64,000 bases of DNA from Gemmatimonadota bacterium (GTDB lineage Bacteria; Gemmatimonadota; Gemmatimonadetes; Longimicrobiales; Gaopeijiaceae). The stretch spans positions 43,067 through 107,066 of the forward strand of contig JBDHHQ010000027.1 of assembly GCA_039589315.1 (NCBI GenBank). Reading direction: 5' to 3'. Below, in pieces: positions 19,884 through 43,516 of the stretch; position 1 is the stretch's first letter, and each line of letters starts with the position of its first letter. Both the position numbers and the translations under genes were made by a program. The notes under the pieces were generated by a model. It searched no databases. It had not been told where the DNA came from and saw nothing but the letters and a program-made list of their open reading frames with translations.

Positions 19884-22800
19884 ATGAAGACCAAGTCCGA
19901 AGGGTCAATAGAGACGCTCGCTGGAGGGAACGGCGACGGTCGGACGATCGACCGGAGGCGGTTCATCCAGACTTCCGCTTTGGTGGGGGGGTCCGGTGTG
20001 CTCGCGGGTTGCGGCTCCCTCGTGCGCCACGACGTCGAGCCGATCGGCGACTACGTCCTGGCGCAGCCAGAGAACGTGCTGTACTCGACTTGTCTCCAGT
20101 GCCACGTGGCGTGCCAGATCAAGGCGAAGATCTGGGACGGCACGCTGGCCAAGCTCACTGGCAACCCGTACAGCCCTCAAAACTACCTGCCGCACCTGGA
20201 CTACGCGACGGACCTGGGAAGAGCGGCCCGAACCGACGGGAAGCTCTGCGCCAAGGGGCAGTCCGGGGTCCAAACCTACAGCGACCCATACCGCATCCGA
20301 CGGGTGCTCAAACGGGCGGGCCCCAGGGGCTCCGGTCAGTGGACTGCCATCGACTTCGATCAGTTCATCGACGAGGTCGTGGAGGGAGGACAGCTCTTCT
20401 CGTCCATAGGGGACACGCGGACCTACCCCGGCTTCGATGAGGTGTACGCTCTTCGGGACCGTGATCTGGCGAACCGCTTGGCGGCGGACGCGTCGGCCTT
20501 CTCGGCGGGCGACATGAACCTAGAGGAGTTCCGCTCGGCGCACCGCGAACACCTCGACCTCCTCATCGACCCCGAGCACCCGGACCTCGGGCCGAAGAAC
20601 AACGGCTTCGTGTTCGACGCCGGCCGCATCGAGCACGGTCGCAAGGAGCTCATGGCGTGGTTCACGAAGGACTCACTGGGGTCGGTGAACTACTTCGAGC
20701 ACACGACGATCTGCGAGCAGTCCCACCACATCGCCTACAACGAGATGACGGGCGGCGACAACAACCACATGAAGCCCGATCTCATGAACGCCGAGTTCGT
20801 GATCTTCTGGGGCACCGGTGCCTTCACGGCGAACTTCGGGCTCACTCCGATGGCCGAGAAGGTGACCAGCGGCAAGGTGGGTCGCGGCATGAAGACGGCC
20901 GTGGTCGACCCACGTCTCTCCAACGACGCGGCCAAGGCGGACTGGTGGCTGCCGGTGGAGCCGGGCGCCGACGGTGCGCTGGCCCAAGCGATGATCCGCT
21001 GGATCCTCGAGAACGAGCGCTACGACGCCCGGTACCTGGCCAACGCCAACCGTGCGGCCGCCGCTGAGGACGGCGAGTCCTCATGGACGAACGGCACGCA
21101 TCTGGTGAAGGTCGAGAACGGGAGGGCCGCCTCGCTGCTGCGGGCTTCCGAGGCGGGGATCCCGGGCGGCGACCTCCCGGTCGTCGTGGTGAGTGGCGGA
21201 CGGCTCGTCGCGGTGGACCCCGACGACACGGTCCGCCCCGTCGAAGGCGACCTTTTCGTCGACCGTACGGTGAGGGGCATCCGGGTCAAGAGCGCGCTAC
21301 AGCTCCTACGGGACGAGGCCTTCTCCCGCTCGTATCAGGAATACGAGGAGATCACGGGCGTCGATTCGGGCAAGATGGCCGAAGTGGCGCGGGAGCTCAC
21401 CAGCCACGGGAAAAGGGCGGGCGTGGAGTTGTACAGAGGGCCCGTGCAGCACACCGACGGCTACTACGCCGGAGCATCCATCATCGCTCTGAACGTCCTC
21501 ATCGGAAACGCGGACTGGAAGGGTGGACTGGCCAAGGGCGGCGGCCACTGGCACGAGTTCGGGGGCCAGCCGGGCACGGCATACGAAATCGGATCCCTGC
21601 ATCCGGCGAAGTTCAGCGCCTGGGGGCCGCTCATCACGAGGGAGAAGTCGCGTTACGAGTCGACCAGCCTCTTCCGGGAGAACGGGTATCCTGCGGCCCG
21701 GCCCTGGTATCCGCTCACCAGCAATGTTTATCAGGAGGTCGTACCCTCGTTCGCCCAGGGCTATCCCTACCCGGGCAGGATCCTCTTCCTGCATAAGGGG
21801 ACGCCGGTCCTGGCAACCCCGGCGGGGGACAAGATCATCGACATGCTCCGCGACCCGGAGCGCGTCCCGCTCTTCATCGCGTGCGACATCATCGTGGCCG
21901 AGACCTCGATGTACGCCGACTACATCCTCCCGGACCTCACGTTCCTGGAGCGCTGGGGCACGCCGCACGTGAGTCCCGACATCGTCTGCAAGATCAGCAA
22001 GGTCCGGCAGCCAGTGGCAGTGCCGCTCACCGAAGAGGTGGAGGTCGACGGGGAGTTGATGCCCATATCCATGGAGGCGTTCCTCATCGCCATCGGCAAG
22101 CGCTTGGACCTTCCGGGGTTCGGGGTGCACGGGCTCGGACCCGACTTCGGCTTCGACCGGCCCGAGGACTGGTTCCTGAAGCTGATGACCAACCTCGCTA
22201 TCGGCGACCGGCTGAACGAGGAGGTGCCCGACGCCTCGGAAGAGGAGATGCGGATCTTCCGGGAGTCCCACCGCCACCTGCCCCCGTCGGTGTTCGACGA
22301 GGCCAAGTGGGCGGCGGCGGTACGCCCCGAGGAGTGGCCCAAGCTCGTGTACCTGCTCAACCGTGGGGGCCGCTTCGCCGCGTTGGAGTCGGGCTACAGC
22401 GGCGAGCGCATGGCCCGCAGGTTCGGGAAGATGTGGCTCCTCTTCTCGGAGAAAGTGGCGAACACCCGGAACAGCATGAGCGGCGAGCCGTTCCACGGGA
22501 TCCCCGTCTACCGGGGCCAGGTGGATGCTGCCGGTGCACCTCTCGATGCGGATGGGTCCCATCCGCTCACGTTGATAACGTATAAGGAGCCCTTCGGCGG
22601 CCACTCACGGACCATCTCCAACTACTGGTCCAACGTGGCCCTGCGGAACGAGAACCGGATCCTGATCAACCGGCGTGACGCCCTGTCCCTGGGACTCGAG
22701 GACGGACAGACGGTGCGCCTGGTCTCCGCGGCAAACCCCGCCGGCACGGTGGTCCTGGGCGACGGTCGCACCATCGACGTCGTGGGCAAGCTGGAGGTCA

Positions 22801-22970
22801 AGGAGGGCATCCGACCAGGTGTCGTAGCGGTGTCCTGGCACTACGGACACTGGGCGTACGGATCCAACGACATCGAGGTGGACGGAACCGTGGTCCACGG
22901 CGACAAGCGCCGCGCCAAGGGGCTCTGCGGCGGTTTGAACAGCCCCACACCAGGGGAGACATACAGATGA
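19884..22970 (+). CDS. Molybdopterin oxidoreductase catalytic subunit, TtrA/SrdA-like; C-terminus apparently truncated
   Basis: Tat 'DRRRFI' + 'LAGC'; CLQCHVAC..LCAKG; 'HTTICEQSHH'; 'ADYILPD..LERWG'; 'GIRPGVVAVSWHYGH'. Confidence 0.88.
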   Translation: MKTKSEGSIETLAGGNGDGRTIDRRRFIQTSALVGGSGVLAGCGSLVRHDVEPIGDYVLAQPENVLYSTCLQCHVACQIKAKIWDGTLAKLTGNPYSPQNYLPHLDYATDLGRAARTDGKLCAKGQSGVQTYSDPYRIRRVLKRAGPRGSGQWTAIDFDQFIDEVVEGGQLFSSIGDTRTYPGFDEVYALRDRDLANRLAADASAFSAGDMNLEEFRSAHREHLDLLIDPEHPDLGPKNNGFVFDAGRIEHGRKELMAWFTKDSLGSVNYFEHTTICEQSHHIAYNEMTGGDNNHMKPDLMNAEFVIFWGTGAFTANFGLTPMAEKVTSGKVGRGMKTAVVDPRLSNDAAKADWWLPVEPGADGALAQAMIRWILENERYDARYLANANRAAAAEDGESSWTNGTHLVKVENGRAASLLRASEAGIPGGDLPVVVVSGGRLVAVDPDDTVRPVEGDLFVDRTVRGIRVKSALQLLRDEAFSRSYQEYEEITGVDSGKMAEVARELTSHGKRAGVELYRGPVQHTDGYYAGASIIALNVLIGNADWKGGLAKGGGHWHEFGGQPGTAYEIGSLHPAKFSAWGPLITREKSRYESTSLFRENGYPAARPWYPLTSNVYQEVVPSFAQGYPYPGRILFLHKGTPVLATPAGDKIIDMLRDPERVPLFIACDIIVAETSMYADYILPDLTFLERWGTPHVSPDIVCKISKVRQPVAVPLTEEVEVDGELMPISMEAFLIAIGKRLDLPGFGVHGLGPDFGFDRPEDWFLKLMTNLAIGDRLNEEVPDASEEEMRIFRESHRHLPPSVFDEAKWAAAVRPEEWPKLVYLLNRGGRFAALESGYSGERMARRFGKMWLLFSEKVANTRNSMSGEPFHGIPVYRGQVDAAGAPLDADGSHPLTLITYKEPFGGHSRTISNYWSNVALRNENRILINRRDALSLGLEDGQTVRLVSAANPAGTVVLGDGRTIDVVGKLEVKEGIRPGVVAVSWHYGHWAYGSNDIEVDGTVVHGDKRRAKGLCGGLNSPTPGETYR

Positions 22971-27483: not shown

Positions 27484-30153
27484 TCAGTCCTCCCGGAGCG
27501 CCTCGGTCGGGCTGACACGTGCCGCCCGCAACGCAGGTAGCGAGCACGCGGCGACCGCCACCGCAAGGAGCACGGCCGTGACGGCTCCGAACACGGTCAC
27601 ATCCCAGGGCGCGACCCCGTAGAGCACCGCGCCCAAGAGCCGGGCGGCCGCCAGGGCGCCGATGAGCCCGACCGCCGCCCCGGCGACGGACACGGTCAGC
27701 CCGTGGCGAATCACACTCCGCATCACCTCACCCACGCTCGCCCCGAGCGCCTTCTTGATTCCGATCTCCCGAGTCTGGCGCCGGACGGCGTGGGCGAGCA
27801 CGCCGTAGATACCCAGCGCCGAAAGAGCCAACGCCAGACCGGCGTACAGCGCCACGATCACGGCCGAGAGTCGACTGCGCGCTTCCTCATCCCGCATGCG
27901 CTGGTCCATGCTGGCGACATCGTAGACGGGTAGATCGGCGTCGGTGTTCCTCACGATCGCGCGCAGCTGCGCGGCGAGGCTCGACGCATCCACGTCCGCT
28001 CGCATGCGAAGGCCGATGGTGAGTGCGCGTTCCGCCAACTGACTGTAGGGCCGGTACACGTCGAGCTGAGGGCCGAACGGATCGAAGAGGCGAGTCCTGT
28101 GCCGTGCGTCGGACACCACCCCCACGACCTCGAACGGCTGCAGAATGCCGTCCTCGTACGCTTCGTACCGGCGCCCGATCGGATCCTCTCCCGGCCACAC
28201 CCATTCAGCGAGAGACTCGCTGACGATCGCCACCTGCCTGGAGCCCTCGTCGTCGGCTGAAGCGAAGTCACGCCCCCGTATCAGCTCCATGCCCAGGCGT
28301 TGGAAGGTGCCCGGATACACGTGATGCCGGGACGCCTCGACCCGCTCCTCCGGGAACGCTTCGTACCGGGCCTCGTCGGTGAGGAGCTCGACCCAGTTGC
28401 CATGCCCCAGTCGGTTGGGGCTCCATAGGAACGCCTCCTCCACGTCCGGCAGGCTCTCGGCCCCCGCCACCAGTGCCTCGGCCACCGCTCGCCGGGGTGA
28501 TTCCTCGTCGTACCGCTCGCCGCGGAGATTGAGGTGAACCGTAACGAGGTCCGCCGTGTCGAAGCCGTACCCGGTGTCCTGAAGGGTTCGAAAGCTCTGT
28601 ACCAGGAGTCCGGCGCCCACCAGCAGGACGAACGCCAGGGCCATCTCACTCATGATCAGGAGCGACCGCATTCGGATTCCCGATCGTCCCTCGGAGTGTC
28701 TTCCGCCGCCGCGCAGTCGATCGGATGGAGTGCCGCCCAGCACGCCCACCGCAGAGGCCAGCCCTAGCGCCGTACCCAACGCGACAGTGACCACGCCTGT
28801 CAGAAGGAGAGCAGGCCCGTCCAGGCGCAGCTGGGTGAAGCCGGGGAGCTCCAGCAGCTCGAGGTTGGTCAGCAGGCCCACCCCCCACCCTGCGATCACC
28901 GTGCCAACCACGCCCCCGATGGCGCCCAGTACGAGGCCCTCCGTAAGGAGTTGGCGGACGAGCCGACCCGGTCGGGCGCCCAGGGCGCGCCGCATTGCGA
29001 TCTCGCGCGTGCGGCCCGTGGCCCGGATCAACATGAGGTTCACGACGTTCACCGTGACCAGGAGAAGGACCAGCCCCGCTCCGACGAGAAGGACCGCCGT
29101 GGGCGCGCGGTGGTTCTGGAAGAACGCTTCGCCGAGCGGACGGAGATTGTAGGTGTAGCCCTGATTCGCCTCGGCGTATTCGGTTGCCAGTGACGTCGAG
29201 AGAGCCCGAAAGTCGGCTCGGGCCTCCGCGAGATCGACGCCGGGTCGGAGCTTCACGATGGCCGTGAACATACGGAACCCGCGGTCCTCTGCGGGCTCGT
29301 ATCCCAGCAGGTCTGGGACCGACCACAGCGGTAGGAAGATGTCGGTGTCGTCCAGTGCCCGGCTGCGAAGGTCGACCTTGCCCGGTCTCATGACGCCGAT
29401 GACCTCGAAGGGCTGTCCGTTCAGTTGGACAGCGTGGCCCACCACATCCGGATTCGATCCGAAGAGCCGCACCCAGGCGCCGTGGGACAGGATCGCCACG
29501 GGACGCGCCGCGCCGCGCCGGTTGTCGTCCCTCATGAACGTCCGCCCCCGGGCAACCTCCATGCCCAGCAGCCGGAAATAGCCATGATCCACGAAGTTGG
29601 CCGGAACCCGCTCCGGAGCCTCGCTCCCGGAGAGGTTCACATCCTGCCAATCCAGGAATAGCGCCATTTCGTCGAGGACCCGGTTCCGCGCCTCCACCTC
29701 CTGCATGTTCAGTAACGAGACGCCGAAGCCGTTCGTAGCGCTTCCCGAAAAGTCGTTGTCCACCAACACCAGACGCTCCGCCTCGGGGTAGGGGAGCGGA
29801 TCCAGGAAGATGGCCGCCGCCAGGGTCAGGATGAGCGCGTTCACCCCCACGCCCAGGGCCAGCGCGCCGGCGGCCACGACGGTGAAGGACGGGTCTCGCC
29901 GAAGCTGACGGAGGCTCACCCGTACATCACTGCCGAAGCCGTTCCAATCCGTAGCGCCCGTAACCGCGTACCGGCCGACGATGGCCATCGCTTGCACCCA
30001 GTACCATGCGGTCGATCGGAAGACACCGGTTCCCCGGGTCCGTCGCACGATGAGCTCCTCCCGGAGATCTCCGAGGATGGCTTCGCGCGATTCGGAGGGC
30101 AGGACGTGGGTCAGCAGGATTTCCGCCAGGCGTGGCGGACGCGGGGGCTTCAC
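27484..30153 (-). CDS. Duplicated orphan ABC permease (ADOP; MacB_PCD/FtsX x2)
   Basis: 889 aa; 'GDLREE', 'LALGVGVN', 'REIAMRRALGA', 'REIGIKKALGA', 'PALRAARVSP'. Confidence 0.9.
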   Translation of the reverse strand: MKPPRPPRLAEILLTHVLPSESREAILGDLREELIVRRTRGTGVFRSTAWYWVQAMAIVGRYAVTGATDWNGFGSDVRVSLRQLRRDPSFTVVAAGALALGVGVNALILTLAAAIFLDPLPYPEAERLVLVDNDFSGSATNGFGVSLLNMQEVEARNRVLDEMALFLDWQDVNLSGSEAPERVPANFVDHGYFRLLGMEVARGRTFMRDDNRRGAARPVAILSHGAWVRLFGSNPDVVGHAVQLNGQPFEVIGVMRPGKVDLRSRALDDTDIFLPLWSVPDLLGYEPAEDRGFRMFTAIVKLRPGVDLAEARADFRALSTSLATEYAEANQGYTYNLRPLGEAFFQNHRAPTAVLLVGAGLVLLLVTVNVVNLMLIRATGRTREIAMRRALGARPGRLVRQLLTEGLVLGAIGGVVGTVIAGWGVGLLTNLELLELPGFTQLRLDGPALLLTGVVTVALGTALGLASAVGVLGGTPSDRLRGGGRHSEGRSGIRMRSLLIMSEMALAFVLLVGAGLLVQSFRTLQDTGYGFDTADLVTVHLNLRGERYDEESPRRAVAEALVAGAESLPDVEEAFLWSPNRLGHGNWVELLTDEARYEAFPEERVEASRHHVYPGTFQRLGMELIRGRDFASADDEGSRQVAIVSESLAEWVWPGEDPIGRRYEAYEDGILQPFEVVGVVSDARHRTRLFDPFGPQLDVYRPYSQLAERALTIGLRMRADVDASSLAAQLRAIVRNTDADLPVYDVASMDQRMRDEEARSRLSAVIVALYAGLALALSALGIYGVLAHAVRRQTREIGIKKALGASVGEVMRSVIRHGLTVSVAGAAVGLIGALAAARLLGAVLYGVAPWDVTVFGAVTAVLLAVAVAACSLPALRAARVSPTEALRED

Positions 30154-30482
30154 GACTCCTCCAGGAGCGCTTCGATGCCGCGCTCCATCTGACGGAGCAT
30201 CGCGCGGGAGTGCCTGATGGCGTCGAGTCCGGCGGCTTCGACGCGGTAGAAGCGCTTGGCCTTTCCACCGCGCTCGGGCGTGGGCCCGGCCAGGTGAGAG
30301 GCGAGAAGTCCCTTGCGTACCAGGCGATCCAGTGTCACGTAGACTGCTCCTCGCGCCACGGACCGCCCGGTCTGCCTCTCGATCTCCTCACGGATGCGTA
30401 CGCCGTAGGCGTCCTTCCCGATGCGCACTACGGCCAGCATCACCAGTAGCTCGAATTCTCCCAGGAACCCCTTTCGTCCCAT
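30150..30482 (-). CDS. PadR family regulator
   Basis: 'LGEFELLVMLAV..YGV.I..GAVYVTLDRL..KRFY'; 4-nt overlap with the permease start. Confidence 0.92.
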   Translation of the reverse strand: MGRKGFLGEFELLVMLAVVRIGKDAYGVRIREEIERQTGRSVARGAVYVTLDRLVRKGLLASHLAGPTPERGGKAKRFYRVEAAGLDAIRHSRAMLRQMERGIEALLEES

Positions 30483-30965: not shown

Positions 30966-31619
30966 TCAGTCTCCGTCCGAGCACGCGCGGCGGAGCCGGG
31001 CGCGAAGCCGCTGGAACCGTTTCCGGAGGGTAGCCGGAGCTAGTCCGAGCGATTCGGCGAGCTCGTTGGTGGAGTAGCCCACACCATACCGCAGTGTGAG
31101 CAGCTCGGCATCGGCTTCGCTGACTGCGTCGAGGGCCTGTGCCAAGAACAGGCGATCCATCAGCTGCGCCTCGACGTCCTCGCCGCTCTCCTCCGTCTCG
31201 GGCGCGTGGGGCGGGGGTAGGGCGGGCCACTTGTTCCTGTCCCGGGTGACACGTTTGCCGAGACGCCACCGCAGCCGCTGGCTCACGTACCCCAGGAAGT
31301 CGACACCGTAGGACGGATCGTACTCCTCCAACGCCTTCCTGAAGACGATGTAGCTCTCGGCCAGGAGATCCTCGGGTAGGCACCCCCCGGGTTCGCACCG
31401 CGAGTCTCGGCAGAACGCCCTGAGCACCTTACTCACCAACGGCAAGTGGCGGAGATAGATCGCAGACGCACAGGCCGCGCGATCGCCCTGACCCCGACAA
31501 GCCTGGAACTGCTCGACCGCTTCGTTGCCCAGCCCGACCGACGCGAAGGGACCCTCGAGCGAGGCCAGCCGCCCGGCGGAGAGCGGACAGGGGAACGCCC
31601 GGGGACCGTTCATCGACAT
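30966..31619 (-). CDS. Sigma-70 family factor (regions 2 and 4 only), Cys-rich
   Basis: 'EDLLAESYIVFRKALEEYDPSYGVDF..YV' region 2; 'LLTLRYGVGYSTNELAESLG..TLRKRFQR' region 4. Confidence 0.75.
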   Translation of the reverse strand: MSMNGPRAFPCPLSAGRLASLEGPFASVGLGNEAVEQFQACRGQGDRAACASAIYLRHLPLVSKVLRAFCRDSRCEPGGCLPEDLLAESYIVFRKALEEYDPSYGVDFLGYVSQRLRWRLGKRVTRDRNKWPALPPPHAPETEESGEDVEAQLMDRLFLAQALDAVSEADAELLTLRYGVGYSTNELAESLGLAPATLRKRFQRLRARLRRACSDGD

Positions 31620-31798
31620 GTCGTTCCAACCGGCGGCGCGGCTGCCGCTACGGGTGCGACCCGCGTCAATCGACGTGGGCTGCCGGGAGCGTTTGTGGCG
31701 AAGGTCACATTCTAGGACGGTGCCGGGGATATTGCCAATAGAGGCTATAGTGGGCCCGACCCTGGCCGGGACCCGTGCTAACCGAACAAAGGCTGGCG

Positions 31799-32620
31799 AT
31801 GAGCTCACGACGACGGACCTTCGAAGCGGCGGCCCTCGCGCTCTTCTTCCTCGGCGTGGCGATCCTGACAGTCTTCGGCTTCGCGATGCGCGACTGGATG
31901 CCACCCGCGGCGTCGCGGCACGCGGCGGGCATGGACGGGATGATCGAGTACCTGCTCTACACCACCGGAGCCATCTTCGTGATCGGGCATCTGGTCCTCA
32001 TAGCCTTCATCTGGCGGTTCGGACGAGGACGGCGTGCGGACAACCCCGAAACGAAGCCCAGGACCGAGCGGCTCTGGTCGATCGCACCAGTCGTCATCAT
32101 GGCCCTCGTCTCCGAGGTCGGCGTGTTGGTCATCGGGCTCCCCGTCTGGGACGAGATCTACGGTGACTTTCCTGAGGACGCGCTCGTCGTGGACGTGGCG
32201 GCACGACAGTTCGAATGGATCATCCGCTACGCGGGAAGTGACGGTGAGTTCGGCCGCACGGATCCCGAGCAGATCGACGGTGCGTCGAACCCGACGGGCC
32301 TCGACGCCGGCGACCCGCGGGCTGCGGACGACGTGGTCGTCCGGAACGTGCTGCGGCTCCCCGTGAACCGACCGATCTACCTGCGCCTGAGGTCGCACGA
32401 CGTCCTGCACAGCTTCTCGGTGGCCGCCTTCCGCGTGAAGCAGGACATCGTGCCCGGCATCGTGGGCAGCACCCAGTTCGTGCCGACCCGAGTGGGCACC
32501 TTCGAGATCGGCTGCGCCGAGCTGTGTGGCCTGGCGCACTATCGCATGCGGGGCCGCGTGATCGTCATGTCCGAGGATGAATACGACCAGTGGCAGCTCG
32601 ACCAGGGAGGAGCCGAATGA
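31799..32620 (+). CDS. coxB: Cytochrome c oxidase subunit II (CuA)
   Basis: TM helices; 'QFEW', 'DVLHSF', 'CAELCGLAHYRM'. Confidence 0.95.
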   Translation: MSSRRRTFEAAALALFFLGVAILTVFGFAMRDWMPPAASRHAAGMDGMIEYLLYTTGAIFVIGHLVLIAFIWRFGRGRRADNPETKPRTERLWSIAPVVIMALVSEVGVLVIGLPVWDEIYGDFPEDALVVDVAARQFEWIIRYAGSDGEFGRTDPEQIDGASNPTGLDAGDPRAADDVVVRNVLRLPVNRPIYLRLRSHDVLHSFSVAAFRVKQDIVPGIVGSTQFVPTRVGTFEIGCAELCGLAHYRMRGRVIVMSEDEYDQWQLDQGGAE

Positions 32621-34416
32621 CCGGTCACGCACCCCTCCCGTTCTGGCGGCGCTACATCTTCTCCACGGACCACAAGATCATCGGGTTGCAGTACATCCTG
32701 ACCGCGGCCTTCATGGCCATCGTGGCCGTGGGGCTGTCGGTTCTGATCCGCCTGCAGATGGCCTGGCCACAGACGCTCTGGCCGGCCCTGGAGCGCATTC
32801 TGCCGCGGGCGTACGAAGGCGGGGTGCTCCTGCCCGAGTTCTACATCAGCATGGTCACGATGCACGGGACCATCATGGTGTTCTTCGTGATCTCCCTCGC
32901 TCTCGTGAGCGGCATCGGCAACTTCATCATCCCCCTGCACGTCGGGGCGCGGGACATGGCGTACCCGTTCCTCAACATGCTGTCGTACTGGACCATCGTA
33001 CCGGCCTGTCTGATCATGCTCGCCTCCTTCTTCGTAGAGGGGGGCGCCGCCGCCGGGGGTTGGACCTCGTATCCGCCACTGTCCGCGCTGCCAGGGGCTT
33101 TACCGGGATCGGGCCTGGGGCAGACGCTCTGGCTCCTGGGGATGGCCCTCTTCATCGCCTCCTTCACGATGGGAAGCCTCAACTTCCTCACGACCATCCT
33201 GAACCTGAGAACCCGGGGCATGTCGCTCATGCGGATGCCGCTCACCACCTGGACGATGTTCGTCTCGTCGGTGCTCGGTATTCTGGCCTTCCCGCCGCTC
33301 ACCGCGGCCGCGATCATGCTGCTCTTCGACCGACACGGAGGCACGAGCTTCTTCCTCCCAGGCGGTCTGGTCGTGGGAGGTCAGGTGCTCCCGTTCGACG
33401 GTGGAACTCCACTCCTGTTCCAGCATCTGTTCTGGTTCCTGGGCCACCCCGAGGTCTACGTGCTGGTCCTCCCGGCCCTCGGCATCGCCTTCGATGTGGT
33501 GGCCACCTTTGGACGCCGGCCGGTGTTCGGTTACCGGACCACGGTGTGGTCGCTACTCGTCGTCGCGGTCCTGAGCATGATCGTGTGGGGGCACCACATG
33601 TTCACGAGCGGTATGAACCCGTACGTCGGCGAGTATTTCTCGATAGTGACCGTGGCGATCACCCTGCCTTTCGCGGTTATCGGTCTGAACCTGATCGCCA
33701 GCCTGTGGCGTGCCGAGCTGCGCCTGACCACGGCCATGCTCTTCGCGATCGGCATCATCTCGGCCGTGGGCACCGGTGGCCTGGGAGGGCTGTACCTCGG
33801 AACGGCAGCCTCGGACATCTACTTCCACGACTCGGTGTTCGTCGTTGGGCACTTCCACTTCATGATCGGCGTGGTGACGTCGTTCGGGATCTTCGCCGCG
33901 CTCTATTTCTGGTTCCCCAAGATGTTCGGGCGGCACATGAGTGAGACCCTGGGCAAGGTGCACTTCTGGCTCACCATCGGGCCCGTCTTCGCCGCCTTCA
34001 TAGCAATGCACTACCTCGGCTTGGGGGGTGCGTTGCGCCGGGTGTACGATCCCACCGTGTACGAGTACATCCGGCCCCTGCAGCAGATGAACGTCTGGAT
34101 CACCTACGCCCTGATCGTCGCCGTCGTGGCGCAGCTCGTCTTCTTCGTGAATCTCGTCTACGGGATGCTGTGGGGCCGACGTGCCGAAGAGAATCCGTGG
34201 CAGGGTGCCACGCTGGAGTGGACCACGCCCTCACCGGCCCCACACCTGAACTGGGCCGAGCCCCCGACCGTGTTCCGGGGCCCGTACCAGTATCGCGTGA
34301 ATGGCACGGCCGAAGGGTATACGCCGCAGCACGTTCCCGACCGAATGGACCAATCGGCCGCTGAGGCGCTCCGGGGCCCGCCGGCGGAACCGACGCTCGC
34401 AGGAGGTCCGGAATGA
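32617..34416 (+). CDS. coxA: Heme-copper oxidase subunit I, A1-type, K-channel residues substituted
   Basis: 'MHGT', 'GARDMAYP', 'GHPEVY', 'WGHHM', 'HFH', 'RR'; PFAVI in place of PT/SxxK. Confidence 0.95.
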   Translation: MTGHAPLPFWRRYIFSTDHKIIGLQYILTAAFMAIVAVGLSVLIRLQMAWPQTLWPALERILPRAYEGGVLLPEFYISMVTMHGTIMVFFVISLALVSGIGNFIIPLHVGARDMAYPFLNMLSYWTIVPACLIMLASFFVEGGAAAGGWTSYPPLSALPGALPGSGLGQTLWLLGMALFIASFTMGSLNFLTTILNLRTRGMSLMRMPLTTWTMFVSSVLGILAFPPLTAAAIMLLFDRHGGTSFFLPGGLVVGGQVLPFDGGTPLLFQHLFWFLGHPEVYVLVLPALGIAFDVVATFGRRPVFGYRTTVWSLLVVAVLSMIVWGHHMFTSGMNPYVGEYFSIVTVAITLPFAVIGLNLIASLWRAELRLTTAMLFAIGIISAVGTGGLGGLYLGTAASDIYFHDSVFVVGHFHFMIGVVTSFGIFAALYFWFPKMFGRHMSETLGKVHFWLTIGPVFAAFIAMHYLGLGGALRRVYDPTVYEYIRPLQQMNVWITYALIVAVVAQLVFFVNLVYGMLWGRRAEENPWQGATLEWTTPSPAPHLNWAEPPTVFRGPYQYRVNGTAEGYTPQHVPDRMDQSAAEALRGPPAEPTLAGGPE

Positions 34417-35027
34417 GCCGCCTGACGTTGGCGGGGACGATCCCCCTCGACGTCCCGCAGGGCGCAGGACGCGGCGCCCCACCCCCGCCGTCTGGCCGCG
34501 GCCTCTATCCCATGTTCCTCATGGCCGTGCTGGCCACGGTCACCATGCTCTTCGCGGCGTTCACCGCGGCCCTCCTGATCCGGCGCTCCGGATCGGACTG
34601 GATCGCCATCGAGCTGCCGGCCATCGCATGGGTGAACGGCGGTGTGATCGTCGTCTCCTCGGCCCTTCTGGAGCTGGCCAGGAGGGCGCTCCGCTCAGGT
34701 GCTGCATCCGTCGCCCCGCTATGGCTGGGGCTCGCGGCCGCCCTCGGACTGCTGTTCCTCGCCGGACAGATAGTGGCCTGGCGCGCGTTGATGGCCGAGG
34801 GCGTCTTTCTCCCTTCCAGTCCTCACGCTGCCTTCTTCTACATGCTGTCGGCGGTCCACGGCGCCCACGTCCTCGGGGGCCTCGGTGCGCTGGGGTGGAC
34901 ACTCCGGAGCGCGCTGAGAGGAGCATACACCGCAACCATGCACCGGGGGTTGAGCCATGCGGCGGTCTACTGGCACTTCGTGGGAGCGCTCTGGATCTAC
35001 CTTCTCATCCTCATGCGGATCGCCTAG
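34413..35027 (+). CDS. Cytochrome c oxidase subunit III (first paralog)
   Basis: 'MLFAAF', 'FFYMLSAVHGAHV', 'YWHFV'. Confidence 0.9.
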   Translation: MSRLTLAGTIPLDVPQGAGRGAPPPPSGRGLYPMFLMAVLATVTMLFAAFTAALLIRRSGSDWIAIELPAIAWVNGGVIVVSSALLELARRALRSGAASVAPLWLGLAAALGLLFLAGQIVAWRALMAEGVFLPSSPHAAFFYMLSAVHGAHVLGGLGALGWTLRSALRGAYTATMHRGLSHAAVYWHFVGALWIYLLILMRIA

Positions 35028-35030
35028 GAG

Positions 35031-35648
35031 ATGCCAATGAGCGAGACAGGCACGATGCCGGCGCCTGTATACTGGGCGGGAGGCGACAGTCCGTTCGCGA
35101 TGTCGTGGCAGAAGCTGATGATGTGGGTCTTTCTCGTGACGGACGCATTGCTGTTCGCGGGCTTCCTCGCGGCCTACGCCTTCATCCGGCTCGCCAGTGG
35201 GTCGTGGCCCGAGCAGGGCGAGGTCTTCAACATGACGCTGATCGGCGTCATGACGTTCACGCTCATCACGTCCAGCGCGACCATGGCCTCCGCCGTCGGC
35301 GCGGCGCACCGAAAAGACCTGAAGACGGCTACGCGGTTCGTTCTACTCACGGCTCTGGGCGGCGCGATCTTCCTGGGGATGCAGGCCACGGAGTGGACGC
35401 AGCTGATCCACGAAGGAGCGCGCCTGTCCGGGAATCCGTGGGGGGCGACGGCCTTCTCGTCGTTCTTCTTCATGATCACGGGCTTCCACGGAACGCACGT
35501 GCTCATCGGCGTGATCATCCTCCTCATCACGGCGGCGCGATCGCGATCCGGCACGGCGACGGCCGACGGCGTCGAGTTGGCAGGCCTGTACTGGCACTTC
35601 GTGGACCTCGTCTGGGTGTTCATCTTCACGACCTTCTACCTGATCTGA
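35031..35648 (+). CDS. Cytochrome c oxidase subunit III (second paralog)
   Basis: 'KLMMWVFL.TD', 'FFMITGFHGTHV', 'GLYWHFVDLVW'. Confidence 0.92.
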   Translation: MPMSETGTMPAPVYWAGGDSPFAMSWQKLMMWVFLVTDALLFAGFLAAYAFIRLASGSWPEQGEVFNMTLIGVMTFTLITSSATMASAVGAAHRKDLKTATRFVLLTALGGAIFLGMQATEWTQLIHEGARLSGNPWGATAFSSFFFMITGFHGTHVLIGVIILLITAARSRSGTATADGVELAGLYWHFVDLVWVFIFTTFYLI

Positions 35649-35658
35649 CGGAGCCAAC

Positions 35659-35961
35659 ATGGAAGGCACCATTTCGTACAGGACCTACTGGCTGATCTGG
35701 GTCGTGCTGCTCGTGCTTACGCTCGTCATGATCGGGATCGAGGCCATGGCCCTGCCCACGGGAATCGCCATCCTCCTGCTATCTGGGGCCATGATGACGA
35801 AGGCTGCCCTGATCGGCGGGTGGTTCATGCACCTCAAGTACGAGACCCGCTTCATCGTAGCCTGTCTCGTGCTGGGGACGTTCCTCACGGCGGCCTTCCT
35901 CGTCTTCCTGCTCGTGCCGGACGGGATCGCCGCCAATCGCATGGCGGAGTATCCACAGTGA
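35659..35961 (+). CDS. Cytochrome c oxidase subunit IV family
   Basis: 3 TM helices; 'KA.LI..WFMHLKYE'. Confidence 0.88.
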   Translation: MEGTISYRTYWLIWVVLLVLTLVMIGIEAMALPTGIAILLLSGAMMTKAALIGGWFMHLKYETRFIVACLVLGTFLTAAFLVFLLVPDGIAANRMAEYPQ

Positions 35962-36171: not shown

Positions 36172-37137
36172 ATGAAGCACGCAGCATCCGATCGGGTTCT
36201 ACACGGAGCCGCGGGTGGGGCTCTGGCCGGGATCGTCGTGATCGTCTGGTTCTTCGCCATGGACGTCGTGGCCGGCACACCGTTCGATACGCCTGCCCGC
36301 CTCTCCAGTGCGGTGCTGCGAGAAGGGTTCAGTAGGCCCTGGCCCCGGCTGATCGCGCTTTTCACCGTGCTGCACTTCGGGGTCTTCGTATCGCTCGGCG
36401 TGGCCACCACGTGGTCTCTCGACGCCGTGCAGTTGAAGCCCAACGTCATCGTGGGTGCCGTGTTCGGCGTCTTCGTGCTCAACGCGGTGCACTACGTGGG
36501 GCTTCTGGTGACGGGCACGAACCTGCTCACGGTGGTGCCTGTGCTGCAGGTCACAGTGGCGAACCTCCTCGGTGGCGTCCTGATGATGTTCTACCTGCAG
36601 AGGACCCTCGGGGACTCCCCGGAACCGGACCGGAGCGCCGTCGAGCGCCACCCCTTGCTCGTGCACGGGCTGGTGACCGGCGCCATAGGTGCGGTCGCCG
36701 TCGCCATGTGGTTTCTCGCCGTGGACCTCTTCGCGGGCTCACCGCTGCGGACGCCTGCAGTGCTCGGGTCGGCGCTACTCCTCGGCTCCGAAAGCGCCGC
36801 CGATGTCCAGCTCAATCCAAGCGTCATCGCGGCGTACTCGGTGCTTCACCTCGGCGTCTTTGCAGCCGTCGGCATCGCATTCAGCTGGCTAGGGGGCAGG
36901 GTCGAAAGCACGCCCGCGTTTGGGGCTCGCGCCGCAGGGGTACTCGTGCTCCTGGAGGTACTCTTTCTCGGGACTGCGGGCATGGCCAGTGACTGGGTCC
37001 TGCAGGAGCTCGGCTGGCTGACCGTTCTCGTGGCCAACGTCCTGGCGGTCGGGGCGATGGGGGCATGGATCTGGCGGACTCGACCTGGTGGCTGGGGCTC
37101 GGCTCGGTTTGACGGGCCTCCCGGATCTGGACGATGA
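36172..37137 (+). CDS. Membrane protein with two homologous 4-TM repeats, each with a conserved His
   Basis: 'WFFAMDVVAGTPFDTPA..TVLHFGVF' and 'WFLAVDLFAGSPLRTPA..SVLHLGVF'. Confidence 0.8.
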   Translation: MKHAASDRVLHGAAGGALAGIVVIVWFFAMDVVAGTPFDTPARLSSAVLREGFSRPWPRLIALFTVLHFGVFVSLGVATTWSLDAVQLKPNVIVGAVFGVFVLNAVHYVGLLVTGTNLLTVVPVLQVTVANLLGGVLMMFYLQRTLGDSPEPDRSAVERHPLLVHGLVTGAIGAVAVAMWFLAVDLFAGSPLRTPAVLGSALLLGSESAADVQLNPSVIAAYSVLHLGVFAAVGIAFSWLGGRVESTPAFGARAAGVLVLLEVLFLGTAGMASDWVLQELGWLTVLVANVLAVGAMGAWIWRTRPGGWGSARFDGPPGSGR

Positions 37138-37162
37138 GCGAGGGAGACCGTCCGGCGTCTGA

Positions 37163-37285
37163 TCACGGCCTCGGCCCTTCCGAGGCTGATGCGACCCGCT
37201 CCACTTCCGTCATGACGGGGAGCGTGTTCTCGCCCCAGATCTTGCGAATCGTCTCCTCGTCGAAGCCGCGCTGCAGCACCGTCGT
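37163..37285 (-). pseudogene. C-terminal remnant of a membrane (renal-type) dipeptidase
   Basis: 'LQRGFDEETIRKIWGENTLPVMTEVERVA'. Confidence 0.6.
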
Positions 37286-37367
37286 CTCGCAATCTCGCGC
37301 CATGGTGTGGCTTGGGGAGGTCCTGGGAGCGACGCCCCGAAGGAGGTCACCTCGTGACCCGCAGTTC

Positions 37368-38987
37368 ATGCGAACACGGGCTCTGATCGCCGGAATGGTA
37401 CTGTCGACGGGCACCCTTGCCGCCCAGGAACTGCGGCCCGGATTCGTGGATCCTGAACCCGTTCTTCGGGCGGCGGCCGAGGCGATCGGGACCGACCGGC
37501 TCAGGTGCGTTACCATTTCGGGGAGCGGGTACACCGGAATGGTCGGCCAGCAGCGCCTGAACGGCTACGAGGTGGATTGGCCACGTGGCGAGCCTCTGGC
37601 CAATTACACCCGCACCATGGACTGGGAAGCCGAGACCATGGTCGAGGAGTTCGACCGCGAGCCGGGGCGCAACCCAGCGTCGTGGAAGTACGGCCTCGGG
37701 TGGAGGGGAGGCACGCCGCTCCAGGCGAGCTCCCGCCAGCGCTTCGTGGTCAAAGGGCTCCACGGGTGGCACGTGGACGGGCCGGGCGGCGAAGCAGTGG
37801 CCGCTCGACCGGAGGACGTGGAGCGTTGGCAGCTGGACCTGTGGCTCAATCCGCACGGATTCTTGAAGGCTGCGATGAAGCCGGGCGCGAATCCTCGGGG
37901 CGTTTGGCGTTGGGAGCTTGGGGAGATGGGACGGGACGGTGCGACCACCGAGCCCGATAAGGTGACCGTCGTATCGATCACCGTGCTCGACAAGTACCGC
38001 GTGGACGCGACGATCAACTCCGAGCATCTGCTCCAGAGGATCCACACATGGGTACCGGACCCCGTGCTCGGCGACATGAACTACGAGCACGAGTTCACCA
38101 ATGCGAGCTATGTGGACGTGGGAGACGGCGTGCGCTTTCCGACGGGGTGGCATCATCATGAGGGCTGGGACGACAACTTCCAGGCCCAGAGCATCAACGC
38201 CGGCCACAACGCCTTCGGTGGAACCTTCGCGGATGTCCAGCCGAACCGGTGCGACAACCCGGCGACGGTCCCCAATCACGTGCGCCGGGCCAGCTTCCCC
38301 ATCCGTGTGACGACAGAAGAGTTGGCCCCCGGCGTGTGGCTGCTTGGCGGAGCCTCGCACAACAGTGTGGCGGTCGAGTTCGCAGACTACGTCGCGGTCG
38401 TCGAGGCCCCGCTCGACGAGGCGCGCAACCTCGCGGTCATCGATGAGGTCGCGAGGCTCGTGCCGGACAAGCCGATTCGATTCCTGGTGAACACGCACCA
38501 GCATCACGACCACATCGGCGGGCTCCGGACGTACATGCACATCGGCGCCACGATCGTAACACACTGGAAGAACTACGACTTCTACGTCCGCGACGTGTTG
38601 AATTTCGCTCCGAGGACGCTCTCGCCCGACATGGTGTCCCTGTGGCCGCCCACAGAGCTGGCCGAGGGATACCAGTACGAGACGGTCCGGGAGAACCACT
38701 GGCTCAACGACGGATCTCGGACGATGCACATCTCGTACGTGCAGCCCCTCGCTCACGTCGAGGGAATGCTCGTGGCGTATCTGCCCGGCGAGAGGCTCTT
38801 GATCGAGGCTGACCTGTTCGATTGGATGGGACCGCGTAATACGTGGCCGGTCACCGCCACTGCGGCTGGCGAGAGCCTGTACAGGCACGTGCGACGGCTG
38901 GAGCTGGACGTCGAAACGATCGTGCCGATCCATGGGCAACCTGTCCCCTGGGCGGAGTTCGTCCGCTTGGTCGGATCAGGGGGCTAG
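37368..38987 (+). CDS. Secreted MBL-fold metallohydrolase
   Basis: Signal peptide; 'VNTHQHHDHIGG', 'AHVEGML', 'EADL', 'VPIHG'. Confidence 0.87.
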   Translation: MRTRALIAGMVLSTGTLAAQELRPGFVDPEPVLRAAAEAIGTDRLRCVTISGSGYTGMVGQQRLNGYEVDWPRGEPLANYTRTMDWEAETMVEEFDREPGRNPASWKYGLGWRGGTPLQASSRQRFVVKGLHGWHVDGPGGEAVAARPEDVERWQLDLWLNPHGFLKAAMKPGANPRGVWRWELGEMGRDGATTEPDKVTVVSITVLDKYRVDATINSEHLLQRIHTWVPDPVLGDMNYEHEFTNASYVDVGDGVRFPTGWHHHEGWDDNFQAQSINAGHNAFGGTFADVQPNRCDNPATVPNHVRRASFPIRVTTEELAPGVWLLGGASHNSVAVEFADYVAVVEAPLDEARNLAVIDEVARLVPDKPIRFLVNTHQHHDHIGGLRTYMHIGATIVTHWKNYDFYVRDVLNFAPRTLSPDMVSLWPPTELAEGYQYETVRENHWLNDGSRTMHISYVQPLAHVEGMLVAYLPGERLLIEADLFDWMGPRNTWPVTATAAGESLYRHVRRLELDVETIVPIHGQPVPWAEFVRLVGSGG

Positions 38988-40853: not shown

Positions 40854-43516
40854 CTACTGCACCCGAAGCGCCTCCACGGGGTCCGCACGTGCAGCACGCA
40901 CCGCCGGTACATAGGTCGCCAGCGCCGCGACCGCAGCCAACACCAGGGCACCCACGCCGAAGCTGAGTCCGTCGACCGCCGACACCTGGTACAGCGCTCT
41001 CTCCAACACCGGTGCCGCCAGTGCCGCGAGGCCGGCGCCGATTGCCAGACCGAGCACGATCGTAGCTAACATCTCCCGCATGACCATGCGGATCACCTGA
41101 TCGCGTGCGGCGCCCAGCGCGATGCGGATGCCCATCTCGGAAGATCGCCGGGCGACCGCAAACGAAACCACCGCGTAAATCCCTTGTTCAGCAGGAGCGA
41201 CTGGGACAATCGGGACTCGAGCGTCGCCAGAGCCCGAAGCGGCAGGTCCGGGCTCACGGCCCTGAGCTCGGCGCGGAGACTGGGCAGCAGCGCACCGGGG
41301 TCTCCGTCGGTTCTGACCAACACGTAGCCCGAGCTGGGGCTCTGGCTCGCCGCGTAGAACAGCATGGGCGTCGGGGGCTCGTCCAACCTCGACACCTTCT
41401 GGTCCTCCACGACGCCAACCACCTGCGCCCACTCGTCCGGGCGAGCCTGTGGTCGAATTCTGCGGCCGATCGGGCTTCCCGGCGCCCAGAATCTTCGTGC
41501 TGCCGTCTCGTTGACGACCACGACCGGTGTGGTGCCCTGCGCGTCCTCGGGGCCGAAAACCCGCCCTTCGGTAATCTGTAGCCCGACCGTTCGGAAATAG
41601 TCCTCACCGACGATCGCGAACGGCAGCTCGACCGATCCGGTGCCGGACGGCGGATCGTAGTCCTCCACGACCGTAGTGGTGCTCCCACCGGGTTGCACCG
41701 GTAGCCGGCTCGTGAACGCTGCGGAGCGTACGCCCGGAAGCGCGGCGGCGCGGTCCAACATTTCCTGGACCCGCACGGCGCGCTCCTCGGCCGAGACTCC
41801 GCCTTGTCCGAAGCTCGTCTGCACGAAGGCCAGTCGCTCCACGTCCACGCCGGGATCGACGCGCTGCACGTTGGCCAGACTGCGCGTGAGGAGGGCGGCG
41901 CCGACCAGAAGCACGAGCGACACGGCCACCTGCGTCGCAACCAGAACGTTCCGGGTCATGACGGACCGCTTGCCGGCGCTGGAGCCACGCCCCTCCTCGC
42001 GCAGAACGCCGGCCAGGTCGGATCGAGCCGAGCGAAGCGCTGGGGCGAGGCCGAACAGGATCCCCGTGAGCATGACAAGGCCGAGCGTGAACAGGAGGAC
42101 GCGCCCGTCCATCGACAGGTCCAGGTCTCCGGCGCCCCCCACGGCCGCGGCCAATGGACCGGCCACCAAAGGCGTGAGGCCCAGGATCCACCGCCCGAGT
42201 AGCAAACCGACGATCCCGCCCAGGAAAGCCAGCGTGCTCGACTCGGCCAGGACCAATCGGGCCACGCGTCCGCGACTCGCCCCCAGCGCCCGACGAATCG
42301 CGACCTCGTGTCCACGCGACAGTCCCCGCACAATCAGCAGGTTGGCCAGATTCGTGCACGCGAGCACCAACACCAGCCCTACGATGCCGAGCAGTACGGC
42401 GGCTGCGGGAACCAGCCTGCTGTCGAGCTCGGGGTGCAGTCGCACGTCGTCGGGTCCGAACACGGTGATCCCGCGGCCCTCGTTGATCTCGGGGAAGTCT
42501 TCCGCGAGCCGTGCCGCAAGCGCATCCATTGCGGACTGTGCCTGCGCGACCGAAACACCAGGGGCCAGGCGGGCCCGGACCCCGTACCAGTGATCCTGCC
42601 TGCGCTCGAGGTTGGCAATGCGGAAGGCCCCGCCGACTCCCACCGAAGAGATCGAAAGCCAGAAGTCCGTCACGAAGGCGCCCCCGGCTCCATTGAAGCC
42701 CTCCGGACCGACGCCAATGACGGTCACGGGCTGTCCGTTCATGCGGATGGTCCGGCCGACGACCGCCGGATCCGATCCGAACTTCGTACGCCAGGCGTGA
42801 TGGCTGACCACAGCGTAGTTGCCCGAACCCACCTCGTCGTATCCGGGCTCGAACCACCGACCCCGGCTCGGGTTGACGCCGAATACGGGGAAGTAGCTCG
42901 CGTTGACGAACTCGATCAGCGCCCTCCGGGGGCCGTCAACGGCCTCCCACGTCACGGTGGCGTAGCTCGCTGCGGCGACGCCGGAGAACACGTCCGTGTA
43001 GGTGGCCATGTCCAAGGCCGCCGGGTAGGACGTCGAAGTCGGCTCGCCGTCGTCAGAATCCTGGTAGACATGTACGACCCGCGACGGATCCTCGTAGGGC
43101 GGCGGTCTGAGCAGCACGGCGTCGACCACCGTGAAGACGGCAGCGTTCGCACCGATGCCGAGGGCTACGATGAGCGTGGCTGAAAGCGTGAAGAACGGCG
43201 TCCGCATCAGCCGTCGAATGGCGTCCCTCAGGTCGTGTCGTATCGTGCTTATCGTCCCTTCCCCCGCACGTCGCCTTCTGGGTGCATCGGCGAACACCAG
43301 GTCGGCCGTGCTCCACCGTTCTCTCCATCCTCCTGCGACCAGGTCACTCGAAGCCCGGACCCATGCCACCGCACCGCCCAGGGCGCCGCCCTCGACGCGG
43401 CCCCTCTTCACACGCCAGCGATAGAGCTCGACCACTTCGCGGCCATACCGCTGCCGAAACGAGGCCGGATAGAGGAGCAGAAGCAGCCGCAACAGCGGGC
43501 CAGGCCTATGGCTCAT
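40854..43516 (-). pseudogene. ADOP ABC permease with deletion/frameshift near 41183
   Basis: Main ORF leaves homology at 'SQSLLLNK'; C-terminus 'GIYAVVSF..EMGIRIALGA..DPVEALRVQ' is in another frame; one TM helix missing. Confidence 0.8.

Follow-up and report, generated by a model that had tools for sequence, protein, structure and literature searches.

A Lys-less A1-type heme-copper oxidase with a candidate rebuilt K-site in a Gemmatimonadota operon

An oxidase operon with an altered K-channel

The window analysed here is a stretch of 64,000 nucleotides from a Gemmatimonadota bacterium (GenBank assembly GCA_039589315.1, contig JBDHHQ010000027.1, positions 43,067 to 107,066). It carries a tight operon, coxII-I-IIIa-IIIb-IV (31775-35961), the second gene of which, coxI (32617..34416, +), encodes a CoxN-like, A1-type heme-copper oxidase subunit I of 599 residues that lacks the lysine of the K-channel and is the subject of this account. 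The identification is based on the open reading frame, on profile matches (Pfam COX1, 418 bits; TIGR02891 CtaD, 533 bits, below the cut-off of 671 for that model), on alignment and on an AlphaFold model (predicted local distance difference test score, pLDDT, 86.7), the best structural matches of which are A-family oxidases (template modelling score, TM-score, approximately 0.8; 0.80-0.83 by query). It is preceded by coxII (31775..32620, +), a CoxM-like CuA subunit II of 281 residues when counted from the GTG at 31775, with the ATG at 31799 as a likely alternative start; the CuA ligands H212, C247, E249, C251, H255 and M258 are all present and no cytochrome c is fused to it. The three genes that follow, recognized by profile match and neighbourhood, are the CoxO-like coxIIIa (34413..35027, +; 204 residues), the CoxP-like coxIIIb (35031..35648, +; 205 residues) and coxIV (COX4_pro; 35659..35961, +; 100 residues). 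A scan for promoters and terminators was uninformative, with one promoter-like site against 0.8 expected. In what follows, bovine residue numbers follow common usage, those of subunit I of Paracoccus denitrificans (Pd) come from the alignment and those of subunit I of Rhodobacter sphaeroides (Rs) are converted by adding 8 to the Pd number.

Why A-family oxidases need a second proton channel with its lysine is a long-standing question, and proton delivery by a K-channel that needs K362 is called a consensus in the accessible part of PMC10341450. A preliminary description of this DNA, made from its letters, had claimed that three polar residues of this channel are replaced by hydrophobic ones in an alignment without gaps, and both points hold. 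Subunit I aligns gap-free from helix VI to helix X with that of P. denitrificans (1AR1) and with the plant protein 7JRO (bovine 1OCC was matched with E 3.4e-90, as a match rather than a residue-by-residue alignment), and the codons are as claimed: F292 (TTC; 33490..33492, +) stands for the K-channel Ser (bovine S255, Pd S291), F352 (TTC; 33670..33672, +) for the Thr (bovine T316, Pd T351) and I355 (ATC; 33679..33681, +) for the Lys (bovine K319, Pd K354). The six His ligands, the Tyr, the Glu, the D-channel, the Mg site and the Arg pair had been described as kept, and H83, H277, H326, H327, H412, H414, Y281, E279, D113, N102, N120, H404/D405 and R474/R475 are indeed kept, as is N189. Across the 77 distinct loci of the clade described below, the O2-type site is complete (six His, Tyr, E242, W149, V280, D400 and R474) and the D-channel residues D91, N80, N98 and N189 are invariant; so, in the numbering of this protein, are D113, N102, N120, N189, Y26 and S123 (Pd D124, N113, N131, N199, Y35 and S134). 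Pd S189 and S193 are Phe in this enzyme and also in its Lys-bearing sister clade.

The 120 best-scoring proteins, picked by similarity only (62-100% identity, query included), all have Y281 and E279 of the XGHPEVY motif, the covalent link of the Tyr being invisible in sequence. At the Lys site they hold Leu (70), Ile (41), Val (8) or Phe (1) and never Lys; at the S255 site Phe (103), Leu (16) or Cys (1) and never Ser; and at the T316 site Phe (87) or Ser (33). The Phe-Phe-Ile trio is therefore true of this gene but not a signature of the clade, the exact combination occurring in 6 of the 77 loci, and to call the channel 'sealed' was an overstatement, given the Ser at the T316 site and the new polar and acidic residues nearby. 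The lower channel retains D293, N358 (Pd S357) and E98 of subunit II. It had also been said that a nearby Lys might restore the channel; in helices VI-IX of subunit I neither Lys nor Arg is conserved at a buried position, R307 in the inner loop being the sole conserved residue of either kind, and TM2 (transmembrane helix 2) of subunit II has a Lys in only 15 of 80 clade subunits. Because the residues that define a canonical K-channel (Pd K354, T351 and S291) are replaced, the enzyme does not count as a canonical member with two channels, although it is A1 by descent and fold.

New residues are found around the vacated position. T349 (33661..33663, +), one turn above the T316 site, replaces an Ala (bovine A313, Pd A348, Rs A356); it is Thr in 118 and Ser in 2 of the 120 proteins, as against Ala (118) or Gly (12) in 130 Lys-bearing relatives. 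T309 (33541..33543, +), in place of Met (Pd M308), is Ser or Thr in 118 of 119 clade proteins versus Met, Val or Ile in all 130 of the relatives. E339 (33631..33633, +), at the outer end of helix VIII, is present in 118 of 119 similarity-selected clade proteins and distinguishes them from the same relatives, as do G356, G385, G390, M416 and I417. It should be noted that the helix VIII pattern used below to collect loci itself fixed E339, T345, Ser/Thr349, N358 and a hydrophobic residue at 355, and that these sites were counted from the 119 or 120 proteins selected by similarity. Simulations of the K-channel take Rs A356 and the P315-M316 region as its walls or as gauges of its width, according to the portion of PMC9687966 that was available.

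In subunit II, E98 (32066..32068, +), which corresponds to the Glu at the entrance of the K-channel (Pd E78, Rs E101), is Glu in 64 and Gln in 9 of 80 clade subunits. E114 (32114..32116, +), a mid-membrane Glu of TM2 present in 76 of the 80, sits at a five-residue insertion relative to R. sphaeroides, within a stretch (residues 95-129) modelled as one continuous helix (pLDDT 91). Counted by operon, a mid-TM2 acid occurs in 75 of 76 clade operons, the sole miss being a frameshifted gene, versus none of 43 Lys-bearing operons. In a joint model of subunits I and II (score 0.90, best control 0.00; contacts agreeing between runs to 93% or more; partner pLDDT 84 or higher), T349, E339, S342 and E114 are all interface residues; the mark for an interface is reached by 116 of 157 solved pairs and 2 of 215 mismatched pairs, and, the two subunits being a textbook pair, passing means that the model resembles solved structures. 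If residues are counted along the antiparallel helices, starting at E98 and N358, E114 would come to lie near residues 342-349.

The Lys-less clade, its relatives and parallel cases

The sequence is not an error, because the exact protein occurs on seven contigs and Lys in none of the 120 best proteins; close homologues that keep the Lys, which the preliminary description had allowed for, were not what the comparison returned. The degenerate helix VIII pattern finds 85 loci in species-representative genomes, mostly of Acidobacteriota, Planctomycetota and Gemmatimonadota, and in the window's phylum eight of 301 sampled genomes are carriers (at least 69% identity, one partial; four unpublished genomes enter the denominator only). 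A search for related loci brought up mainly Lys-bearing CoxN genes, clade members making up 4 of 80. When 236 sequences of subunit I are placed in a FastTree phylogeny, the clade, with 77 rows, is a single group (Shimodaira-Hasegawa, SH, support 100); its sister is a set of three Lys-bearing CoxN-type rows (97), and it is nested in further Lys-bearing CoxN-type groups. An IQ-TREE analysis of 86 rows, from which the whole of helix VIII and the last part of helix VI had been removed, gives 99 for the clade and 97 for the sister link. The trees used LG models without mixture (LG+G4 for the constraint test below), include a quick tree and contain long branches; they are rooted on canonical A1 rows, and the outgroup does not fall cleanly on one side of a branch. 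Because the clade nests among Lys-bearing CoxN-type groups, the Lys is read, given that root, as having been lost from a Lys-bearing CoxN-type ancestor.

Gene order is maintained across 90 clade loci, a count that takes in duplicates and cut contigs: subunit II is present in 85, IIIa in 74, IIIb in 85 and IV in 78, so that, together with the single tree group, a real subfamily with a conserved neighbourhood emerges. The ratio of non-synonymous to synonymous substitution rates (dN/dS; Nei-Gojobori) is 0.03-0.14 over 490 core codons in 16 clade pairs and is like that of Lys-bearing paralogues in the same genome pairs (0.031, 0.043 and 0.045 versus 0.035, 0.031 and 0.030, with further pairs at 0.068 versus 0.079 and 0.087 versus 0.090), some dS values being near saturation. 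The earlier view that the substitutions reflect selection and not decay is supported by these low ratios, by the uniform absence of Lys and by the conserved operon.

With A1-type aa3 oxidases (P. denitrificans 1AR1/1QLE; R. sphaeroides 1M56 and its K362M mutant 3OM3) the enzyme shares the fold, the GHPEVY motif, the six His, the Tyr, the D-channel, the Mg site, the Arg pair and a CuA subunit II; it differs in being 35% identical, in the replacement of K354, S291 and T351, in having Thr for A348 and M308, in the new E339, in a subunit II TM2 that is five residues longer with a buried Glu, and in a split subunit III. With oxidases of 'subtype a-III (2 COX3)' (Bradyrhizobium CoxN, Bacteroidota, Vicinamibacteria), for which we take CoxMNOP(Q) to be another name, it has in common the gene order II-I-IIIa-IIIb-IV, D/E256 and N322, and it is placed inside that group as sister to a Lys-bearing Vicinamibacteria-type clade (SH-like approximate likelihood ratio test, SH-aLRT, 97); unlike it, the 130 Lys-bearing relatives all combine K319 with Ala or Gly at 313. 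The K-channel analogue of B-family oxidases is formed in Thermus thermophilus ba3 by Y248, S309 and T312, which we take to be the positional equivalents of F292, F352 and I355; here these positions hold Phe, Phe or Ser, and Ile or Leu, and a D-channel, which ba3 lacks, is present.

Subtype a-III is entered as 'K-channel yes', and the Gemmatimonadetes subclade as 'generally yes', in PMC8239418 (Table S1). Table 3 of that paper catalogues Lys-less enzymes both of the A2 type (the rus-operon oxidase of iron-oxidizing Acidithiobacillus, Thioclava and CyoCAB; see also the accessible part of bioRxiv 10.1101/2020.03.01.968255) and of the A1 type (Elusimicrobia, Ca. Calescamantes, Methylacidiphilum and Halobacteriovorax), classed there and in the same excerpt as 'KC', 'modified' or 'hybrid'; no row of Table 3 is a Lys-less a-III enzyme, and neither A348 nor a mid-TM2 acid is among its columns. 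A Lys-less aa3 of Ferrigenium straubiae is called unclear in function in the available text of bioRxiv 10.64898/2026.01.22.701106. Like these enzymes, that of the window has a hydrophobic residue for Lys and keeps the D-channel and the Tyr; unlike them, it is of separate origin and mostly keeps the equivalent of subunit II E78, which is usually lost there. An altered proton channel on a heme-copper scaffold with a CuA subunit is found also in the eNOR, bNOR, sNOR, nNOR and putative N2O reductase families, which have B- or C-family ancestors and Gln, Asn or Glu in place of the Tyr, whereas Y281 and the D-channel are kept here; the accessible part of the source makes no mention of Lys-less A-family variants (PMC11214002). 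Loss of the Lys in the A family is thus a known phenomenon, whereas this clade itself appears to be undescribed: neither an account of it, as a normal oxidase or otherwise, nor one of the covariation at position 313 was found in the mostly open-access literature covered, and reviews or supplements could list them.

A pattern with a hydrophobic Lys site and position 313 left free matches at least 120 loci, in Acidobacteriota, Actinomycetota, Chloroflexota, Verrucomicrobiota, Myxococcota, Pseudomonadota, Fidelibacterota, Halobacteria and others; three of those among the matches listed belong to this clade. Position 313 in the 120 Lys-less matches listed is Ser in 112, Thr in 7 and Ala in 1 (Ser or Thr in 119), and four other Lys-less groups have a mid-TM2 acid (20 of 20, 13 of 13, 7 of 7 and 9 of 11). 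The Lys trait changes at least seven times on the tree, and a single origin of all Lys-less enzymes was rejected (approximately unbiased test, p-AU 5e-59; a cost of 573 log-likelihood units for keeping all 51 Lys-less rows together, with the trait columns removed). Repeated natural loss of Lys, near-always with Ser or Thr at 313 and mostly with a new buried acid, offers two concrete candidate suppressors for the Lys mutants of P. denitrificans or R. sphaeroides. It matters also for annotation, in that genes of this kind go unnoticed among ordinary aa3 oxidases or carry a cbb3-type label, although their H+/O2 yield may differ, and their carriers are common marine, groundwater and soil lineages.

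The preliminary description took O2 turnover in the A family to depend on the Lys. This does not sit well with the natural Lys-less A1 and A2 oxidases already catalogued, nor with four genomes from the window's family, each a single contig (G064, G071, G080 and G205; 97-99% complete). In these, another Lys-less type is the sole PF00115 match, no bd oxidase match was found and ctaA and ctaB are present. If aerobic growth of the four is assumed, this suggests that Lys-less A-family enzymes can act as terminal oxidase. A member of the same type is the second Lys-less CoxN-type oxidase of the window genome (G000:C21:35330-37039, L001), with Glu318, Ser313 and an Asp in TM2 of subunit II. The idea that heme b3 is used, with Ser/Thr313 replacing the farnesyl hydroxyl, was discarded: ctaB is over cut-off in 57 and ctaA in 59 of 60 genomes, and both are present in every single-contig genome whose sole oxidase is a Lys-less one. 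The window genome (G000) encodes both as well, and in loci L098, L102, L118 and L157 they stand directly behind the operon.

Two further Lys-less groups may be mentioned in their own right. One, from Gemmatimonadota and Acidobacteriaceae (L177-L188, L191-L193, L196, L197, L199, L369 and L384), nests in Lys-bearing acidobacterial CoxN, retains S255, carries Thr at 313 together with a Glu in subunit II, and is without the Mg-site Asp (Gly or Ala at 405). The other is an aa3 of Methylophilaceae and other betaproteobacteria (L327, L343, L353, L362, L368, L410 and L436), sister to ordinary gammaproteobacterial CtaD, with Pro at 255, an Asp in TM2 of subunit II and ctaA/ctaB in the cluster; it is a more accessible test case.

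A putative rebuilt K-site and its rivals

The reading that we favour, at a probability of roughly 0.55, is that the operon encodes an accessory, heme-A-containing and CuA-fed O2 reductase in which the K-site has probably been rebuilt, centred on T349 and on E114 of subunit II. We infer that O2 is the substrate, that E114 and T349 have the roles given to them here, and that the enzyme is used at low oxygen. Electrons would pass from CuA through heme a to heme a3/CuB, where the His-Tyr cofactor would take part in splitting O2; pumped and oxidative-phase protons would travel the D-channel as usual, to judge from its fully kept residues. In the reductive phase the Lys compensates charge and supplies protons to the Tyr/heme a3 side; this job would have passed to T349, a turn above the former Thr position, and to the buried E114 packing on helix VIII. 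The rebuilt site may be helped either by E339 and S342 on the outer side or by T309, D293, N358 and subunit II E98 on the inner side. A bolder version, which we hold to be doubtful, has reductive-phase protons entering from the periplasm along the seam of helix VIII and subunit II TM2, by way of E339, S342, subunit II E114 and T349 to the farnesyl hydroxyl of heme a3 and Tyr281, with F292, F352 and I355 sealing the cytoplasmic half; less charge would be separated per O2, turnover would be possible at low driving force, and the combination of Ser/Thr313 and a buried acid would have evolved repeatedly as a general means of making A-family oxidases independent of the Lys.

Several observations weigh against the rebuilt site or its generality. 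The direct E114-T349 pair is absent from the 25 contacts listed for the model, and the Phe found at 352 in 87 of the 120 proteins may cut any inner proton route. In the Lys-less group of Actinomycetota and Chloroflexota the TM2 acid is found in 0 of 15, a Glu in helix VIII being carried instead. Ser313 occurs together with Lys in at least 120 loci (bo3-type, cyanobacterial and some aa3), with Thr in none of those listed. These loci rule out that Ser/Thr313 marks Lys loss exclusively; Ser313 accompanies the loss without implying it and is at most a precondition. Just five independent pairs stand on the starred branches; 313 follows the Lys trait in four to five of them and opposes it in none (sign test, p 0.06-0.125). 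The type that is the sole oxidase in four genomes has an extra Glu in helix VIII and so is no proof for this clade, and none of the 85 pattern matches is titled as a cultured strain. Finally, a Lys-bearing A-family oxidase is also found in 42 of 50 carrier genomes (three split or partial), with one further case undecided and no such gene among the matches listed for the other seven; the survey covered 50 of approximately 87 loci and 150 of 168 matches, with 99 non-clade matches fetched. Because of these 42, the enzyme is usually accessory; O2 respiration seldom depends on it, and its task could be a different one.

Unlikely, although the best of the alternatives, is an O2 reductase that works with the D-channel only, the K side being closed and T349, E114 and T309 filling space, stabilizing the fold or tuning the potential of heme a3/Tyr. 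The invariance of the D-channel in the 77 loci fits such an enzyme, as do the bulky F292 and F352 that occur together in 39 of them and the glycines G356, G385 and G390, which resemble volume compensation. The same has been proposed for Acidithiobacillus-type enzymes (bioRxiv 10.1101/2020.03.01.968255, in its accessible part), and K362M still permits one-electron reduction of the site, as stated in the available text of PMC10341450. Packing, however, explains poorly a near-invariant buried carboxylate that recurs in several Lys-less groups and is absent from all 43 Lys-bearing operons, and there is no gain in the D-channel relative to the Lys-bearing sister clade, F183/T184 being common to both.

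Laboratory mutants of the K-channel Lys (K362M) retain H2O2-supported turnover. A change of substrate, to H2O2 or to NO (nitric oxide) or another N-oxide, each bypassing the proton supply of the reductive phase or needing less of it, was accordingly among the proposals of the preliminary description, and the status of the gene as mostly a spare copy would suit it; we nevertheless consider it improbable. The neighbours of the 90 loci, none of them constant, include an Rrf2 regulator with three Cys (17), CBS (8), NarG-like (7), USP (6) and hemerythrin (4) genes, and hint at oxygen or redox regulation, which could be counted in favour; no peroxide-related gene cluster is found among the 40 commonest neighbours. 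Against a switch stand the fully kept, O2-type Tyr and CuB site and the retention of subunits III and IV and of the whole D-channel, which fit pumping turnover. As to NO, NO-forming nitrite reductases are seen in 6 of 51 carriers (NirK-like 1, NirS-like 5), compared with NirK-like matches in 15 (7 over cut-off) of 29 genomes from the phylum that are not carriers, a comparison confounded by kinship and habitat and by the incompleteness of metagenome-assembled genomes, and for NO an eNOR-like gene is already available in the window genome. With Y281 in all 120 proteins and no link to nitrite reductases, a role as NO reductase is not supported.

Less probable still is a slow, poorly coupled scavenger of O2 or redox sink, in which low flux would tolerate a crippled reductive phase and the new residues would give stability. 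Its accessory status agrees with this, and the Lys-less aa3 of F. straubiae, from another lineage, is the least expressed of that organism's heme-copper enzymes in the accessible text of bioRxiv 10.64898/2026.01.22.701106. The dN/dS of the clade is, however, as low as that of main oxidases, and in three carriers (G307, G338 and G345; completeness not given) neither a Lys-bearing A-family nor a bd oxidase was found, a bd oxidase being detected in 1 of 5 tested carriers without a Lys-bearing A-family gene. Private decay or sequencing error can be set aside as practically negligible: nothing points to it for this gene, even if a frameshift in another oxidase gene of the genome shows that assembly errors occur, and it is opposed by the absence of Lys from all 120 best matches, the spread over three phyla, the intact operons and the low dN/dS.

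Other oxidases and neighbouring genes

The window genome has four heme-copper loci. Apart from coxI and the Lys-less gene on C21, these are a Lys-bearing CoxN-type gene (G000:C43:99737-101528; L003 and L005), the only Lys-bearing A-family gene of the genome, which lies behind multiheme/ACIII-like and bd-like genes and has a frameshift near residue 150 that is either real or an assembly error, and an eNOR-like pair of CuA subunit and subunit I behind an Rrf2 gene (G000:C6:114061-116399; L004), so labelled from the Gln in place of the Tyr. A NosZ-like match is present (C45:28272-30146; 378 bits, below cut-off), and the genome gave no NirK or NirS match. Divergent heme-copper-like subunits of marine Planctomycetota (L308, L310 and L311, in G307, G338 and G305) keep the His pair, and no His is seen in them at the helix VI ligand site.

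Within the window, the gene at 36172-37137 (+) encodes a membrane protein of 321 residues that contains an internal repeat and helices bearing His, and that has no Pfam or NCBIfam match; it adjoins the same operon in L007, L101 and L115, and its Atlas look-alikes are unnamed clusters. A metallo-beta-lactamase-fold protein follows at 37134-38987 (+), its weak matches being far below the cut-offs of models for true beta-lactamases. Divergent from the operon, at 30966-31904 (-), is a Sigma-70/ECF-like factor, which is not a constant partner, an Rrf2 gene standing there in other carriers. Further away, at 19884-22970 (+), lies a molybdopterin oxidoreductase of the twin-arginine translocation (Tat) type that is closest to TtrA (467 bits, below cut-off) and is followed by a porin-like gene of 347 residues. 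The operon is flanked on both sides by repeated pairs around 30150-30482 and 43093-43516 (27484-30153 and 41093-43516), presumably, from the list of open reading frames, a PadR-like regulator with a MacB/FtsX-type permease.

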